Below, in pieces: positions 1 to 4,282 of a stretch of DNA of 4,282 nt (positions are counted from its first letter, which is position 1; the number at the start of each line of letters is the position of its first letter). Position numbers and translations under genes: made by a program. Source of the DNA: Oligoflexales bacterium (lineage in GTDB: Bacteria > Bdellovibrionota_B > Oligoflexia > Oligoflexales > Bog-1112). A model generated the notes under the pieces. That model was not told the origin of the DNA. It searched no databases and saw only the letters and a list, made by a program, of their open reading frames with translations. Where the stretch lies: the NCBI GenBank assembly GCA_045106415.1, contig JBGCEP010000041.1, positions 1-4,282 of the forward strand, written 5' to 3'.

Positions 1-644
1 TTTTTTGTTTTATCAAAATAAGTAATAATCCCGCCGTCGAGTTGGTAAACCGATTCGAATCCTTTTTGCTTCATGTAGGAAGTTGCTTTTTCACAACGGA
101 TGCCACCGGTGCAAAAGGTTACGATAGGGATATTCTTTTTACCTTCTAAATTTTGATCAACCCAGTCAGGAAATTGGTCAAAAGACTGAATGTTGGGGTT
201 AACAGCATTTTTGAATGTACCCATATCAACTTCATAGTCATTACGAGTATCGAGGATGATCATATCTTTATTATCATTTTGCCACTGTAGAAAATCTTCA
301 GGGGAGATGTATTCTCCTGTGATTTCATTTGGCTCAATATCTTTTCGAAGAGTAATGATGTGATCTTTGACTTTGACGAGCATGCGACTAAAGGCAGGGC
401 TGTCGTGTTGGTTTACTTTAAAGAGTACGTCCTGGAACAAAGGATTGCTGTGTATATGCTTTTTAAAGCGAGTGATGTTGTCAGGAGAGCCGGTAACCAT
501 TCCATTGATACCCTCTTCTGCGAGGAGAATCGTGCCAAGCATATCAAGTTCTTGCGTAACTTTTTTGAGTTCAGTCCGCAGCTCTTGGGTCTTGTTAATC
601 TCTATGAATTTGTAGAAACTAAGGATTTCGTATGTTTGGCTCAT
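1..644 (-). CDS. trhO: tRNA uridine(34) hydroxylase TrhO / YceA (UPF0176) rhodanese-related protein, 3' end beyond the window edge
   Basis: Manual translation from ATG at 644 (cat 642-644): MSQTYEILSFYKFIEI...LGTILLAEEGINGMVTG...TFCTGGIRCEKATSYMKQKGFESVYQLDGGIITYF. The FYKF, GTILLAxEGING, CTGGIRCEKA and VYQLxGGI motifs are characteristic of TrhO. A purine-rich SD-like AGAGAGGAAA lies at 651-660 on the minus strand. Confidence 0.93.
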   Translation of the reverse strand, partial: MSQTYEILSFYKFIEINKTQELRTELKKVTQELDMLGTILLAEEGINGMVTGSPDNITRFKKHIHSNPLFQDVLFKVNQHDSPAFSRMLVKVKDHIITLRKDIEPNEITGEYISPEDFLQWQNDNKDMIILDTRNDYEVDMGTFKNAVNPNIQSFDQFPDWVDQNLEGKKNIPIVTFCTGGIRCEKATSYMKQKGFESVYQLDGGIITYFDKTK

Positions 645-799
645 TGTGGTTTTCCTCTCTTCTCATATAACAACGAAAGAGTTTTAAACGATCTTATGGA
701 CTTATGTCCAGAGAAAATAAATATTTTGTCGTTGTGGTACGCCTGAGATCTTAGGGGTTTAATTGAGCTGGGCATTAACAGTTCTTTGTGAAAAATGTT

Positions 800-828
800 T
801 TGCTCACGACTTTTATCTATGTTATTAG
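800..828 (+). promoter_or_regulatory. possible sigma70-type promoter for the plus-strand gene pair
   Basis: TTGCTC (800-805), 17 nt spacer, TATTAG (823-828) preceded by TGn, in the divergent intergenic region 645-890. Imperfect match in AT-rich DNA. Confidence 0.25.
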
Positions 829-890
829 GGTGTCGCGCACCTTTGTTGTGGGATTTTTTTTAGAAATTCTTAATTGTAAATGGAATTTAA

Positions 891-1961
891 ATGCGTTTTT
901 TAACTTGTGTTTTTTTACTGATATTGTCGAATAGTGGTTTTAGTCTAGAAGATTATTCAAATGATAGAAGAGTTCATGTGAATGTTAAAGACCGTGTTTT
1001 TGAGTTTCACAAATCGAGCTTTATTGGCCTTGAAGACACAGTTCTTTATAAGAAGATCTTTAGCACAAACTTCGCTGATTCTGTGGATCTAACATATGCC
1101 GCGGGTGTTTATTTAGATACTTTCGAAGGTATTCACTTTGCTATTGAACAAGATTTATCTTATCCGGGTTCAGGTAAAAGAATTTTACCAAAGTGGTTTG
1201 CCGTTCACCGAAACCTTGTTTTTGATGTTTTACCTATTTTCTCAAGCTATGTAAGTCTGGCGGATATTTATTCATTTTACGCTTCTGATCTGAACTTCCT
1301 TGGTCTTAAAGGAAAAGTTGCTGGCCCTGGTTGGTCGAAAATCCGGACTGAGTCGTTTGAGGGGCGAGATTATATCTATTATATTTTGACTATAAATGGT
1401 GCTGATTTTGAATTTGTAGAAGTCCCAGGAGAAGTAGCGGATGAAAGTTCTTTCATGATGTCTCATTGGGTTACCCATCAGCACTGGAGGGCTGTAACAG
1501 GTCAGAGCCCCGCAACGTTTTCTGGCGCTGGTGCCAATTTCCCATTGAAGAATGTTTCTTACAATTGCATTATGAATGAATTTTTTCCTCCTTTGAATGC
1601 AGCGTTTACGGCAGCAGGTTTTGAGGGAGAGCTTTCACTTCCAAGTGATTCGAATTGGCAGATAGTTGCAGATGATTTTGCTGTGAATAAGCCTCAGTAT
1701 TCAGATGTTGGTAAAAGCGCTCTTTCAGATGCTTCTCCAGCTCTTGTTAGGTCAAAATTACGAGGCAAGCTTGGTATGTGGATGTTTGGATCTGTCTGGG
1801 AGTGGGTCGGTATACCTGATGATTTGGGTAATGCTAATCTTCGCGGCGGGAGTTGCTACTCTTCTGTTGAGAGAGTAGGCCCTAACGCGCTGCTTTCGAA
1901 TGACACAGATAGTCGACGTCGCGACTTTGGCTTTCGTTTGTTTAGAGCTAGCACTCATTAA
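891..1961 (+). CDS. exported protein: signal peptide + probable BTB/POZ (KCTD/T1-like) domain + FGE-sulfatase-like CLec domain
   Basis: 356 aa. Hydrophobic N-terminus MRFLTCVFLLILSNSGFS. aa 26-140 has RVHVNVKDRVFEFHKSSF..LEDTVLYKKIFS and ASDLNFLGL, resembling the KCTD BTB pattern. aa ~163-356 has VT..HWRAVTG.SP, FPLKNVSY, LPSDSNW, GMWMFGSVWEWV, RGGS and GFRL, typical of the FGE-sulfatase/SUMF1 fold. GGA upstream at 882-884. Confidence 0.85.
   Translation: MRFLTCVFLLILSNSGFSLEDYSNDRRVHVNVKDRVFEFHKSSFIGLEDTVLYKKIFSTNFADSVDLTYAAGVYLDTFEGIHFAIEQDLSYPGSGKRILPKWFAVHRNLVFDVLPIFSSYVSLADIYSFYASDLNFLGLKGKVAGPGWSKIRTESFEGRDYIYYILTINGADFEFVEVPGEVADESSFMMSHWVTHQHWRAVTGQSPATFSGAGANFPLKNVSYNCIMNEFFPPLNAAFTAAGFEGELSLPSDSNWQIVADDFAVNKPQYSDVGKSALSDASPALVRSKLRGKLGMWMFGSVWEWVGIPDDLGNANLRGGSCYSSVERVGPNALLSNDTDSRRRDFGFRLFRASTH
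1377..1961 (+). repeat. paralogous CLec-domain segment, copy 1 (partner 3347-3958)
   Basis: Roughly half the residues are identical by eye (DFEFVEVPG, FMMSHWVT, FEG, NKPxYSD, WMFGxVWEWVG, FGFRL). Exact 17-mer atgatgtctcattgggt at 1455-1471 and 3443-3459. Confidence 0.9.
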
Positions 1962-2041
1962 TTTCAATCACATACTCATTTTTTGTTGAAGATCGAAGTG
2001 TTTGTTCTTGAGTGTAGAAAAGTAAAGAAAAGGAATTTCTA

Positions 2042-3958
2042 ATGGTAAAGTTTGTTTCATTTTTGTTGATGTTTTGTTCAGGTTTCGCCCTAGGTATGGA
2101 ATTAGAATTGCATACTGATACGAGGTCGGTTGAGAAGTGGCTGGAAGAGAATCGAAATCTCGCACACCCTGCTGAAATTTTACGAGCTGAATTGTTACTT
2201 CAACACCAGTTGGATGCTATTCCAAAGGGTTATGAAAATTTTCCTAAATTTTCTTTTTCGTTGTCTGGTGAAAATATTTCTGATGAATTGTATCTTCTTA
2301 ATTTAGCTAAAGTGTCAAAAGATTTAGAACGTGCTCAGACCTTAATGGAAGGCCGCTCTGAGTGTTTAGAGGGCTTGGAATGTTTGCGTTCAGGTTCTCT
2401 TGAGATGAAAGCGGATGTTGCGATTGGTTCTGAATCTTCAGAATGCCCTGTGTGTACAGATGGTTTTTTGTCTGGTGAGATTATTGTGAAAGAGAGCTGT
2501 GGTCACATATATCATGCACCTTGTGTGAAGCAGGGTCTTTTGGCGTCATTGCACGGTGGGAATGATAAGAATATCTCTTGTCTTGTTAAGGACTGTCCTG
2601 GGTATTTGTCTCCACTTCAGGCTGCAAGTCTGTGTTTGCAGGAGTCTGTTTCTACACGGATACAGATGCAGAAGATGTTGTTGTCACATTTGGAGAAGGT
2701 GGTTTTTTGTCCATCGTGTGGTTTGGGTGTGAAGCGATCTGAGCATGCAGCAAGTGGTGCGTGTGGCCATTGTGCTAAAGAAGTGTGTTTTGATTGCGGT
2801 TATACATCTCACCGTGGTGAAAGTTGTGATTTACAGTTGGAAAAACAGAAAACTTATAGGGAAGTGTTATCTAAAGGTCTTAATGTAGGTCTTTGCCCCC
2901 ATTGTGACTGTTTGATGGAACGAGGGGAGGGTTGTTCTATCATGCGTTGTGGTGATAACGCTCATACGACGAATGATGTAAGCAATCGAGGTTGTGGTCG
3001 AGAGTTTCAGTGGCCGGATCGCAAGCCTGTACCAAATGATTTGAAAGATATCCCTGATCGTTCGAAAAAAACTATAACGACACATTTTAAGACTTTAAGC
3101 CCTGATGATTTGCAGAGGCATATTTTTGAAGGCAAACCACTTTTTGATATTGCTAATGTCATAGGTGTATCGAGTGTAGAAGAAGCTTTGGATGTGATTC
3201 GTTTGGGTGGCAAAATACGAGGCCGGTTTCTAGCTTCAGAGGTTTCAGAAGGTGATCGAGAGATACTTATGAAGTATGGGTGTTTTTTCATTGATGGAAA
3301 GTCTGAAAAATCTTGGGGCTACACCTATAAGGAAGATGGATTTACTTATTATGTGATGACACTTGCAGGTGTTGATTTTGAGTTTGTAGAAGTACCGGGT
3401 AAGCGTATCTTGGGGATTTTAGGGAAGAGAAAATCTTTTTTTATGATGTCTCATTGGGTAACTCAAGGTCAATGGTTTGCAGTTATGGGAGAGAATCCTG
3501 CGGGTTTTGCAGGCCGTGGCTTAGATTTTCCAATGGAGAGTATTTCTTACAATGATGTTGTGAATAATTTTCTTCCACGTCTGAATGTTTTGCTTCAAGG
3601 CGCTAGTTTTGAAGGAAAGTTTAAGCTTCCTGGTGATGCTCAGTGGCAGAGAATGGCAGATAAGAACGTTGCAGCAGAGTTTGCATCGAACAAGCCAAAG
3701 TATTCAGATTTTGGCCAGAATTGGGATTCAGGACAGCCTCTATCAGTGAAGTCTAAGGATCGAGGAAATCTTGGAGCTTGGATGTTTGGGACTGTTTGGG
3801 AATGGGTTGGAACTCTTAATGCCTCTGGTCTCGTTGCTTTACGTGGCGGCAGTTGGGCCGACTACTCGGAGAACGTGGGCCCTTCGGCGCACTTTTCGTA
3901 CAGGTCTGACCACCGCGCCCGCAACTTCGGCTTTCGGCTCTTGAGAGCTTTACCCTGA
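2042..3958 (+). CDS. exported protein: signal peptide + RBR (RING1-IBR-RING2) E3 ubiquitin ligase module + FGE-sulfatase-like CLec domain; putative DGR target
   Basis: 638 aa, SD-like AGGA at 2031-2034, hydrophobic N-terminus MVKFVSFLLMFCSGFALG. RING1: C135,C138,C153,H155,H158,C161,C180,C185. IBR: C223,C226,C241,C244,C249,C252,H257,C262. RING2: CPHC...ERGEGCSIMRC...GCGREFQW. C-terminal domain has VTQGQWFAVMGENP, FPMESISYND, LPGDAQW, MFGTVWEWV, RGGSW, FGFRL. Confidence 0.9.
   Translation: MVKFVSFLLMFCSGFALGMELELHTDTRSVEKWLEENRNLAHPAEILRAELLLQHQLDAIPKGYENFPKFSFSLSGENISDELYLLNLAKVSKDLERAQTLMEGRSECLEGLECLRSGSLEMKADVAIGSESSECPVCTDGFLSGEIIVKESCGHIYHAPCVKQGLLASLHGGNDKNISCLVKDCPGYLSPLQAASLCLQESVSTRIQMQKMLLSHLEKVVFCPSCGLGVKRSEHAASGACGHCAKEVCFDCGYTSHRGESCDLQLEKQKTYREVLSKGLNVGLCPHCDCLMERGEGCSIMRCGDNAHTTNDVSNRGCGREFQWPDRKPVPNDLKDIPDRSKKTITTHFKTLSPDDLQRHIFEGKPLFDIANVIGVSSVEEALDVIRLGGKIRGRFLASEVSEGDREILMKYGCFFIDGKSEKSWGYTYKEDGFTYYVMTLAGVDFEFVEVPGKRILGILGKRKSFFMMSHWVTQGQWFAVMGENPAGFAGRGLDFPMESISYNDVVNNFLPRLNVLLQGASFEGKFKLPGDAQWQRMADKNVAAEFASNKPKYSDFGQNWDSGQPLSVKSKDRGNLGAWMFGTVWEWVGTLNASGLVALRGGSWADYSENVGPSAHFSYRSDHRARNFGFRLLRALP
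2444..3013 (+). other. RBR E3 ligase module (RING1 2444-2596, IBR 2708-2827, RING2 2894-3013)
   Basis: Cys/His spacing and the order of the three clusters match Ariadne/Parkin-type RBRs. The predicted catalytic Cys298 is codon TGT at 2933-2935. Confidence 0.85.
3347..3958 (+). repeat. paralogous CLec-domain segment, copy 2 (partner 1377-1961)
   Basis: Same alignment as copy 1; for example gattttgagtttgtagaagt (3374-3393) versus gattttgaatttgtagaagt (1404-1423). Confidence 0.9.
3842..3940 (+). other. putative DGR variable region (VR)
   Basis: 33 codons from RGGSW to GFRL: 18 end in C, 9 in G, 6 in T, 0 in A, versus 2 C-ending codons in the preceding 33 (3743-3841). Runs GCC GAC TAC and GAC CAC CGC GCC CGC AAC TTC sit where DGR templates for CLec targets typically carry AAC runs. 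Confidence 0.72.
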
Positions 3959-3962
3959 GTAA

Positions 3963-3984
3963 GCATAAAAGCGAAGCTTTATGC
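3963..3984 (+). promoter_or_regulatory. GAA-loop DNA hairpin, candidate DGR cis-acting target-recognition stem-loop
   Basis: GCATAAAAGC-GAA-GCTTTATGC: 9 bp stem with one bulged A, core GCGAAGC, beginning 4 nt after the TGA stop. No poly-T tract follows. Confidence 0.65.
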
Positions 3985-4055
3985 GATTGTTATCCTTTTA
4001 CCGTTAAGCCTGGCCGGATGGAGGCCAATAATCGGAATCTTTATTTTTAGGTTAA

Positions 4056-4104
4056 GGAGCCGTGAAGGTTAGCGAGCGTGAGCGGGCGGCCTTCAAAGGG
4101 TTCC
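4056..4104 (+). other. long imperfect GC-rich stem-loop between convergent genes (terminator-like or REP-like)
   Basis: GGAGCC (4056-4061) pairs with GGTTCC (4099-4104) and TGAAGGTT (4063-4070) with GGCCTTCA (4088-4095), using three G-U pairs; 17 nt loop AGCGAGCGTGAGCGGGC. Confidence 0.4.
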
Positions 4105-4159
4105 GTTGTTGTGAGATTTTTTTAAAAATTTTTAAGTATAAATCCGGCATTGATCACAC

Positions 4160-4282
4160 CTAATTTTGATTTAGAGAATAAATATCAGATGCAGAATTTG
4201 AAATCATTAATATGATTTTTCTTCGTAGGTCAGTAACACCTGTCACTAAGACTTGCATCTGCCCATCAAGTTCAATGTAAAC
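4160..4282 (-). CDS. 3' end of a convergent CDS, possibly an IS1634-like transposase C-terminus
   Basis: Open frame from the window edge to TAG (cta 4160-4162): VYIELDGQMQVLVTGVTDLRRKIILMISNSASDIYSLNQN*. Resembles from memory the IS1634 tail pattern (xxLTxxRRxILxxxGxxxxxYY), but only 40 aa are visible. Confidence 0.4.
   Translation of the reverse strand, partial: VYIELDGQMQVLVTGVTDLRRKIILMISNSASDIYSLNQN

Follow-up and report, generated by a model that had tools for sequence, protein, structure and literature searches.

A putatively exported Ariadne-like RBR protein with a lectin tip of diversity-generating retroelement type

Contig JBGCEP010000041.1 of the Oligoflexales bacterium assembly GCA_045106415.1 (positions 1 to 4,282, hereafter 'the window') carries two tandem open reading frames (ORFs), ORF1 and ORF2, with related C-terminal lectin domains and different N-terminal heads. 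In ORF2, a signal-peptide-like start is followed by an Ariadne-like RING1-IBR-Rcat (RBR) module and by a C-terminal FGE-sulfatase-type lectin (CLec) domain, the tip of which resembles, far beyond chance, a variable region (VR) of a diversity-generating retroelement (DGR) in both composition and layout. The explanation that accounts best for these features, and which we hold tentatively and with slightly less than even confidence, is that ORF2 encodes a Sec-exported Ariadne-like RBR protein whose lectin tip has been written recently, or is being written currently, by a DGR encoded off the contig. ORF2 is apparently a member of an undescribed family (P0026-P0131, related to ORF2 residues 130-330) of signal-peptide-bearing Ariadne-like RBRs that have a single-zinc Rcat and exchangeable tails.

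The RBR head of ORF2 and its family

The sequence and the structural model together give good support for a complete RING1-IBR-Rcat module in ORF2, in which the catalytic cysteine is kept and the second zinc site of the Rcat is gone. Both the RING and the IBR match exceed their Pfam cut-offs (Table 1), and most of the metal ligands are well-conserved. In an alignment of 47 rows (ORF2 and 46 relatives), from which all of the conservation counts are taken, each RING1 ligand is retained by 32-45 of the 46 relatives – the lowest being H158, which is replaced by cysteine in 12 – and each IBR ligand by 34-46, with C298, C303, and C318 each kept in 42. The Rcat of ORF2 ends with GCGREFQW in place of FCWxC, and throughout the variant family the second zinc site is replaced by an insert of 8-25 residues ending with the pattern GCGxxFxW.

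A profile built from 21 family members matches ARIH1 (1.1e-18), ARIH2 (5e-18), Cullin-9 (2e-13), RNF216 (4e-8), and parkin (9e-5) in the PDB, and aligns Cys298 with the cysteine of the ARIH1 motif G-C-N-H-M; the alignment to ARIH1 reaches about 50 positions N-terminal of RING1. In an AlphaFold model computed with 47 sequences, confidence (pLDDT), taken in blocks of 10 residues, is 78-95 for residues 131-300 and 69-95 for residues 301-330. Foldseek comparison of this model yields 43 PDB matches at E<=1e-3, with all of the matches listed being RBR ligases and the best being ARIH2 (4e-8), and the ESM Atlas neighbours of the ORF2 head are all IBR/RBR clusters. The RBR head and the Ariadne affinity that the original prediction had proposed are thus both borne out by Pfam, by the ARIH1 profile match, and by Foldseek, with ARIH1 and ARIH2 as the best PDB matches. 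No Ariadne domain was called in ORF2, where helices at residues 354-411 are modelled at pLDDT 38-63, and a word-indexed protein search with the RBR region of ORF2 matched only ORF2 itself.

An exhaustive HMMER search with residues 1-430 of ORF2 recovered 445 proteins with E<=1e-3, of which 23 reach E<=1e-10 and two, including the query, E<=1e-30; no relatives of ORF2 were found in 185,579 species genomes. Among the 149 relatives listed, 39 have the variant Rcat seen in ORF2, 59 a canonical Rcat, and 51 neither, as classified by a regular expression of our own. Signal-peptide-like starts, called by our own hydropathy rule, are present in 15 of the 39 variant-Rcat relatives versus two of the 59 canonical RBRs. 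The C-terminal parts of the family are diverse: pentapeptide repeats are the commonest tail (seven relatives: P0035, P0044, P0052, P0067, P0085, P0121, and P0131), two relatives (P0027 and P0033) have Lcl_C/DUF1566-like tails at E ~1e-4, below the Pfam cut-off, and other tails consist of Tudor-like repeats, ankyrin repeats, or membrane segments. Because these tails are swappable, and include pentapeptide repeats as in KCTD9, the C-terminus of the ORF2-family RBRs may be regarded as a substrate receptor. The exported family to which ORF2 belongs is probably bacterial, as judged solely by its signal-peptide-like starts and pentapeptide repeats, and phrase searches of the literature turned up no bacterial or prokaryotic RBR ligase among the papers listed.

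In a FastTree phylogeny of the RBR columns (midpoint-rooted, with supports not inspected, and covering 45 of the 47 rows after exclusion of ORF1 and the fragment P0041), ORF2 lies next to P0025 within the exported variant-Rcat group. The closest relatives are P0025 (225 aa), which is 48% identical to ORF2 over residues 148-344, and P0041 (121 aa), which is 38% identical over residues 25-141. Both appear to have been truncated at contig ends and to represent one or two orthologous genes, and at least one related organism therefore exists. A separate subgroup (P0038, P0039, P0042, P0043, P0045, P0051, P0054, and P0059) has the same Rcat variant and no signal peptide, with the RBR at the extreme N-terminus followed by asparagine-rich, membrane-segment-like tails; its composition suggests an origin in A+T-rich protists or giant viruses.

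The ORF2 lectin tip as a candidate variable region

Assignment of the C-terminal part of ORF2 to the FGE-type CLec domains, as originally proposed, is upheld by a Pfam FGE-sulfatase match over residues 464-635 (E 1.1e-8; 35.5 bits against a cut-off of 23.3). A word-indexed protein search with the whole of ORF2 returned 22 homologs from outside the window, all aligned on the lectin part only at 28-35% identity, and the closest of these have N-terminal Pkinase, TIR, or caspase domains according to precomputed Pfam annotation. The lectin part alone is also matched, at 25-38% identity, in tblastn searches of plasmids and phages, and among PDB sequences the lectin domain has no match at E<=1. The pLDDT of this domain is below 50 and Foldseek finds no lectin match for it, because the alignment used for modelling took in the RBR relatives and not the lectin homologs.

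The 33 codons at the tip of this domain (positions 3842-3940) have a codon composition that is distinct from that of the rest of the gene. Third-position C occurs in 18 of these 33 codons versus 46 of the 605 elsewhere in ORF2 (Fisher p 3e-11), and third-position A is absent versus 136 of 605 (p 6e-4); the 13 adenines fall 4, 9, and 0 at the first, second, and third codon positions, respectively. The limits of this region were set after a scan of blocks, and a tail window fixed beforehand agrees (17/33 versus 45/599). In that scan, third-position C varies from 0 to 13% across 20 blocks of 30 codons and reaches 57% at 3842-3931, where third-position A is lacking altogether. The G+C content of the region is 60-63%, compared to ~40% for the ORF2 gene.

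The verified DGR on Prosthecochloris aestuarii plasmid pPAES01 (positions 1041-5576) served as a control; two FGE targets flank an HRDC-avd-reverse transcriptase (RT) array, and the template repeat (TR) lies just past the RT, at about 4019-4160. With the same fixed tail window, its two targets have third-position C in 17 of 33 codons versus 77 of 261 and in 16 of 33 versus 56 of 224, and the negative control, an FGE gene from a metabolic setting in Klebsiella, has 10 of 33 versus 47 of 256 and a normal complement of third-position A (8/33). The first Prosthecochloris VR is identical to its own TR in 62 of 63 non-adenine columns and in 10 of 21 adenine columns. The ORF2 tail is identical to the same TR in 44 of 63 non-adenine and nine of 21 adenine columns, even though identity at the protein level is only ~31%, and the AAC codons of the TR face GCC, GAC, CGC, and AAC (that is, NNC) in ORF2. 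The VR-like 3′ end that was initially suspected in ORF2 thus finds support in both its composition and its alignment with the TR of a verified DGR.

ORF1 and the surrounding sequence

ORF1 and ORF2 are on the same strand, 80 nt apart. BLASTP aligns their C-terminal ~204 residues at 50% identity (101/204; E 4e-62), and their N-terminal parts do not align, as expected of the tandem paralogs with different heads and a common CLec domain that had been described. The differences between the two lectin domains are mainly at predicted variable positions, with the scaffold residues in between common to both. The N-termini of both proteins have a short basic stretch, 12-15 hydrophobic residues, small residues, and then an acidic stretch, as read directly from the sequence, and ORF2 was also flagged as signal-peptide-like by a hydropathy heuristic. 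This agrees with the signal peptides predicted for both paralogs, and export by this route is probable.

The head of ORF1 is less readily assigned. An ESM Atlas model (pTM 0.54, pLDDT 0.61) has BTB or BTB_2 listed in nine of its ten neighbour rows, at TM scores of 0.47-0.54, and the segment following the signal peptide presumably looks like the beginning of the T1/KCTD motif; a single-sequence AlphaFold model was discarded (pLDDT 32). A word-indexed protein search with the ORF1 head matched only itself. Overall, the odds that the head is a BTB domain are roughly even. The CLec domain of ORF1 is assigned because of its 50% identity to that of ORF2, its own Pfam FGE-sulfatase match having an E value of only 0.27. 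Its tip has third-position C in 10 of 34 codons versus 39 of 322 (p 0.015) and third-position A in four of 34, and is identical to the Prosthecochloris TR in 33 of 63 non-adenine and six of 21 adenine columns; the conserved tryptophan of the GGSW motif is lost (GGSC). The ORF1 tip has probably decayed or was never diversified, and stands beside the fresh tip of ORF2.

Table 1. Features of the 4,282-nt window, with coordinates, strand, and basis of assignment
Feature	Coordinates	Strand	Evidence or remark
trhO 5′ part (tRNA U34 hydroxylase; UPF0176 + rhodanese)	3..644	-	runs past contig end
Direct repeat, left copy (~42 nt)	840..882	.	repeat finder (29 nt, 83%), extended by alignment
ORF1, 356 aa: signal-peptide-like start, tentative BTB/T1-like head, CLec domain	891..1961	+	ORF call, BLASTP, structure search
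ORF1 candidate BTB_2/T1-like fold (residues ~21-150)	951..1340	+	ESM Atlas structure search
ORF1 CLec domain (residues 161-353)	1371..1949	+	BLASTP vs ORF2 residues 434-636
ORF1 stretch equivalent to ORF2 VR	1842..1943	+	faint VR signature
ORF2, 638 aa: signal-peptide-like start, helical N-terminal region, RING1-IBR-Rcat, helical linker, FGE-type CLec with VR-like tip	2042..3958	+	
RING1 (C135 C138 C153 H155 H158 C161 C180 C185)	2444..2596	+	Pfam zf-RING_2, 27.9 bits vs cut-off 27.3
IBR (C223 C226 C241 C244 C249 C252 H257 C262)	2708..2827	+	Pfam IBR, 28.2 bits vs cut-off 24.3
Rcat (RING2) variant: zinc site C285 C288 C303 C318, catalytic Cys298 (codon 2933-2935)	2894..3013	+	
ORF2 CLec, FGE-sulfatase type (residues 434-636)	3341..3949	+	Pfam FGE-sulfatase
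Candidate DGR VR (residues 601-633)	3842..3940	+	codon composition and alignment to verified DGR
Imperfect hairpin, GAA loop	3963..3984	+	7 bp, bulged A, 2 bp; starts 5 nt past ORF2 stop
Direct repeat, right copy (~42 nt)	4103..4144	.	repeat finder and alignment
Convergent gene, last 40 codons	4160..4282	-	runs past contig end

The window has four coding features (Table 1), the two outermost of which are incomplete. The protein collection lists ORF1 and ORF2 as singletons, both on a contig that equals the window in length, and the window therefore probably makes up the whole contig. The left-hand gene is a chromosomal context marker outside of the proposed system: its product matches the NCBIfam TrhO equivalog at E 1.1e-74, scoring 250.9 bits where the cut-off is 170, together with Pfam UPF0176_N (9e-27) and Rhodanese (1.5e-11). 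A TrhO query of species-genome contigs recovered three loci at 37-52% identity, with no synteny and no ORF1 or ORF2 relatives in them, and the convergent gene at the right end has no counterpart in the TrhO-matching loci fetched. A direct repeat (the two copies ~83% identical) exactly brackets the ORF1-ORF2 pair, with one copy in the gap between trhO and ORF1 and the other in that between ORF2 and the convergent gene, and may be what remains from the insertion of a two-gene island.

The G+C content of the window is ~40%, and there is a G-over-C skew on the plus strand of +0.13 to +0.33 across its whole length; third-position C is 7.6% in ORF2, 12% in ORF1, and 29% in the minus-strand trhO. The spacer 3′ of ORF2 is richer in G+C (53% at 4000-4089) and contains a 33-codon ORF at 4062-4163, with a GTG start and AAGGAG 5 nt ahead of it. 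No Rfam or tRNA match and no significant fold was found in the spacer at 4000-4163; the Rfam and tRNA/tmRNA scans of the window as a whole were empty, and folding of the flanking spacers gave nothing significant except for the hairpin just past ORF2.

Proposed mechanism, alternatives, and relationship to known systems

If ORF2 is the exported, DGR-diversified RBR protein that we favour, its TR, RT, and Avd would be located off the 4.3-kb contig, and mutagenic retrohoming would swap the tip for TR copies with randomised adenines, so that about 15 side chains change while the lectin scaffold stays fixed. The RBR would take ubiquitin, or a ubiquitin-like protein, from an E2 as a thioester on Cys298 and hand it on to any target bound by the lectin tip, the C-terminal module of this family being the predicted target-binding part. 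ORF1 would contribute a possible BTB/T1-like head, either oligomerising or cullin-adaptor-like, and a tip that is no longer diversified or never was. What the analysis establishes is the arrangement of domains, an RBR fold that keeps its catalytic cysteine, the paralogy of the two genes, and a tip of VR type in composition and layout; ubiquitin transfer by ORF2, its delivery into a eukaryotic host, an active DGR, and a BTB identity of the ORF1 head are inferred. A more elaborate scenario, in which a host-associated bacterium re-aims an Ariadne-type RBR by means of a DGR, the BTB-like ORF1 mimics a Cullin-3 adaptor, the pair copies the E3-E3 partnership of cullin-RING ligases and Ariadne, and ORF2 is the first studied member of a secreted bacterial RBR family with exchangeable receptors, is doubtful.

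Several observations weigh against the DGR-diversified, exported ligase. RBR activity of ORF2 is uncertain because all characterised RBRs have a second Rcat zinc site that is missing here, and Sec export would put 18 zinc-binding cysteine ligands and the catalytic cysteine into an oxidising periplasm. There is no visible route to a host cytosol, and the role usually proposed for cellular DGR targets, as described in the main text of Roux 2021, is extracellular. The sole taxonomic hint drawn from the window, a best species-genome match of TrhO at 52% identity to a metagenome-assembled genome labelled Bdellovibrionota_B, points to a group that includes bacterial predators, the prey of which have no ubiquitin. 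The BTB_2 match expected for ORF1 did not materialise at the sequence level, there being no BTB family in Pfam and no BTB chain among the PDB sequences at E<=10.

No RT or Avd is encoded on the 4.3-kb contig, which ends 324 nt after the ORF2 stop codon, and no template repeat was found within the window, either by a repeat finder or by an adenine-tolerant gapless scan, the scores of which equal those of shuffled sequences. Of the DGR diversification originally postulated, the VR signature stands, both in composition and in TR alignment, and an active DGR is conjectural. Adenine-specific variation is not observable from a single sequence without reads. Absence of TR and RT from the contig is no refutation, because DGR targets can lie away from the retroelement; Wu 2018 gives non-adjacent targets for 45 of 372 DGRs.

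The hairpin following ORF2, which had been put forward as a further DGR feature, exists (dG -5.9 kcal/mol, z -3.2, with one of 200 shuffles folding as well) and is imperfect and A+T-rich. Published DGR hairpins or cruciforms have a GC-rich stem of 7-10 bp and a 4-nt GRNA loop 4-34 bp past the VR and occur in phage-related DGRs, as described in the accessible text of Guo 2011; measured against that type, the position alone fits, the stem being A+T-rich with a bulge and the loop being 3 nt. Neither VR of the verified Prosthecochloris DGR is followed by a hairpin, and the window contains three other perfect hairpins of at least 7 bp versus 0.86 expected. The hairpin is weak evidence because the published type is unmatched, the control DGR is without one, and the window has others.

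The most serious competing explanation, which we consider unlikely, is that ORF1 and ORF2 are ordinary DGR-type surface binders in which the RBR-like and BTB-like heads, rather than performing ubiquitin chemistry, provide a scaffold stabilised by zinc or disulfides or allow oligomerisation. The signal-peptide-like starts of both proteins agree with this, as do the loss of the second Rcat zinc site and the lack of any known intracellular lineage at the nearest taxonomic hint; moreover, most cellular DGR targets combine a signal peptide or transmembrane segment with binding domains and are thought to bind extracellular ligands, according to the main text of Roux 2021. However, 42-46 of the 46 relatives retain Cys298 and all ligands of the three zinc-binding units, which suggests selection beyond that for a scaffold, and the pentapeptide, ankyrin, and Tudor-like tails of the family are typical of intracellular protein binding.

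Somewhat less probable still is that the variable region is a fossil, the lectin having derived from a DGR target and the tip having been frozen when the working DGR was lost. The contig has no DGR core, and the tip of ORF1 looks like a case of such decay within the same lineage. However, the ORF2 signature is undiluted, with third-position A in none of 33 codons and third-position C at 55% against a background of 7.6%, and an A+T-rich genome with a strong strand skew would be expected to erode such a signature quickly, as seems to have happened in ORF1.

It is very unlikely that the pair constitutes an intrabacterial conflict sensor, in which a diversified lectin would sense an invader and the RBR would drive a bacterial ubiquitin-like conjugation response. 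The Pkinase, TIR, and caspase heads of the closest lectin homologs lend this some plausibility, and the domain syntax is that described in the main text of Kaur 2020; however, the known systems are cytoplasmic, ORF1 and ORF2 have predicted export signals, PADLOC defence models identify no families for either protein, and there is no E1, E2, or ubiquitin-like gene on the contig. Finally, the contig could be non-bacterial (from a protist or giant virus) or chimeric with the RBR-lectin fusion an artefact – RBR and BTB domains are overwhelmingly eukaryotic, all named ESM Atlas neighbours are eukaryotic apart from one giant-virus cluster, and the contig is a short singleton – but this is scarcely credible given the intact bacterial-type trhO on the same contig, the intron-free and closely spaced genes, the single uninterrupted reading frame encoding both RBR and lectin, and the relatives with bacterial-type signal peptides and pentapeptide repeats.

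If the exported, DGR-diversified RBR is substantiated, then a diversified receptor attached to a transfer enzyme would mean that bacteria can evolve the targets of an enzyme and not merely binding partners, and ORF2 would be a natural counterpart of engineered degraders, providing self-diversifying targeted ubiquitination. An exported and probably bacterial family of Ariadne-like RBRs with a single-zinc Rcat would add a fourth mechanistic class of bacterial E3 mimics, and the single-zinc Rcat would offer a minimal Rcat for mechanistic study. The spike of third-position C together with the lack of third-position A would be a practical flag for orphan DGR targets on short contigs that have no retroelement.

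Bacterial E3-ligase effectors include NEL/IpaH, HECT-like SopA, U-box LubX, and SidC, and resemble the role proposed for ORF2 in that they mediate bacterial ubiquitination of host proteins via a dedicated binding domain. To our knowledge, none of the bacterial E3-ligase effectors is of RBR type or linked to a DGR. The listed papers that name both DGRs and ubiquitin revealed no DGR-ligase case in their titles or abstracts, and neither 'ubiquitin' nor 'ligase' occurs in the main text of Roux 2021.

ORF2 shares with ARIH1 (HHARI) and ARIH2 the RING1-IBR-Rcat order, the ligands of RING1, of the IBR, and of the first Rcat site, the G-C-x-x-M catalytic cysteine motif, and a helical region preceding RING1; unlike them, it is without the second Rcat zinc site, has a predicted signal peptide and a lectin tail, and is of bacterial origin. 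ORF1 would share the layout of the BTB/KCTD Cullin-3 adaptors – a BTB domain and a C-terminal binding domain – if its head is BTB_2-like. One of these, KCTD9, is a Cul3 adaptor comprising a BTB domain and a pentapeptide-repeat tail, as described in the abstract of PMC6019787, and this tail type is the commonest in the RBR family of ORF2. Legionella LdtA is, like the product proposed here, an exported DGR target, and its type of C-terminal end is shared, below the Pfam cut-off, by the Lcl_C/DUF1566-like relatives P0027 and P0033. Nonetheless, LdtA belongs to the DUF1566/CLec2 lectin subclass in the accessible text of Wu 2018 and has no enzymatic head, and is thus not an example of an FGE-type CLec scaffold as had been supposed.

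The closest architectural parallels are the TvpA-type DGR proteins (CLec1, category b, in the accessible text of Wu 2018), which have, like ORF2, a C-terminal FGE lectin with a variable region in the last ~35 codons, a tip rich in NNC codons and free of third-position A, and an N-terminal export signal, which in ORF2 is a predicted one. ORF2 differs from these in the appended RBR module and in the absence of TR, RT, and Avd from its contig. The target modules named in the text of Wu 2018 include proteases, a kinase, a Toll-like receptor, an NTPase, a metallophosphatase, IF2_N, and WD40, with no RBR among them. The conflict-system fusions of Kaur, Burroughs, Iyer, and Aravind 2020 also have another domain at the N-terminus and a DGR-diversified FGE domain at the C-terminus, but as presented in the main text they are cytoplasmic and belong to NTPase-centred systems, whereas ORF1 and ORF2 have predicted export signals and form a pair without an NTPase; 'BTB' does not occur in that text, and its mention of RING refers to a separate prokaryotic E3 gene. 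The suggestion that the architecture was undescribed therefore holds in part: the joining of an N-terminal module to a DGR-diversified FGE domain was already described in the accessible texts of Wu 2018 and Kaur 2020, and the ligase module is new. What ORF2 adds is the Ariadne-like RBR head and the combination of such a head with a predicted export signal.

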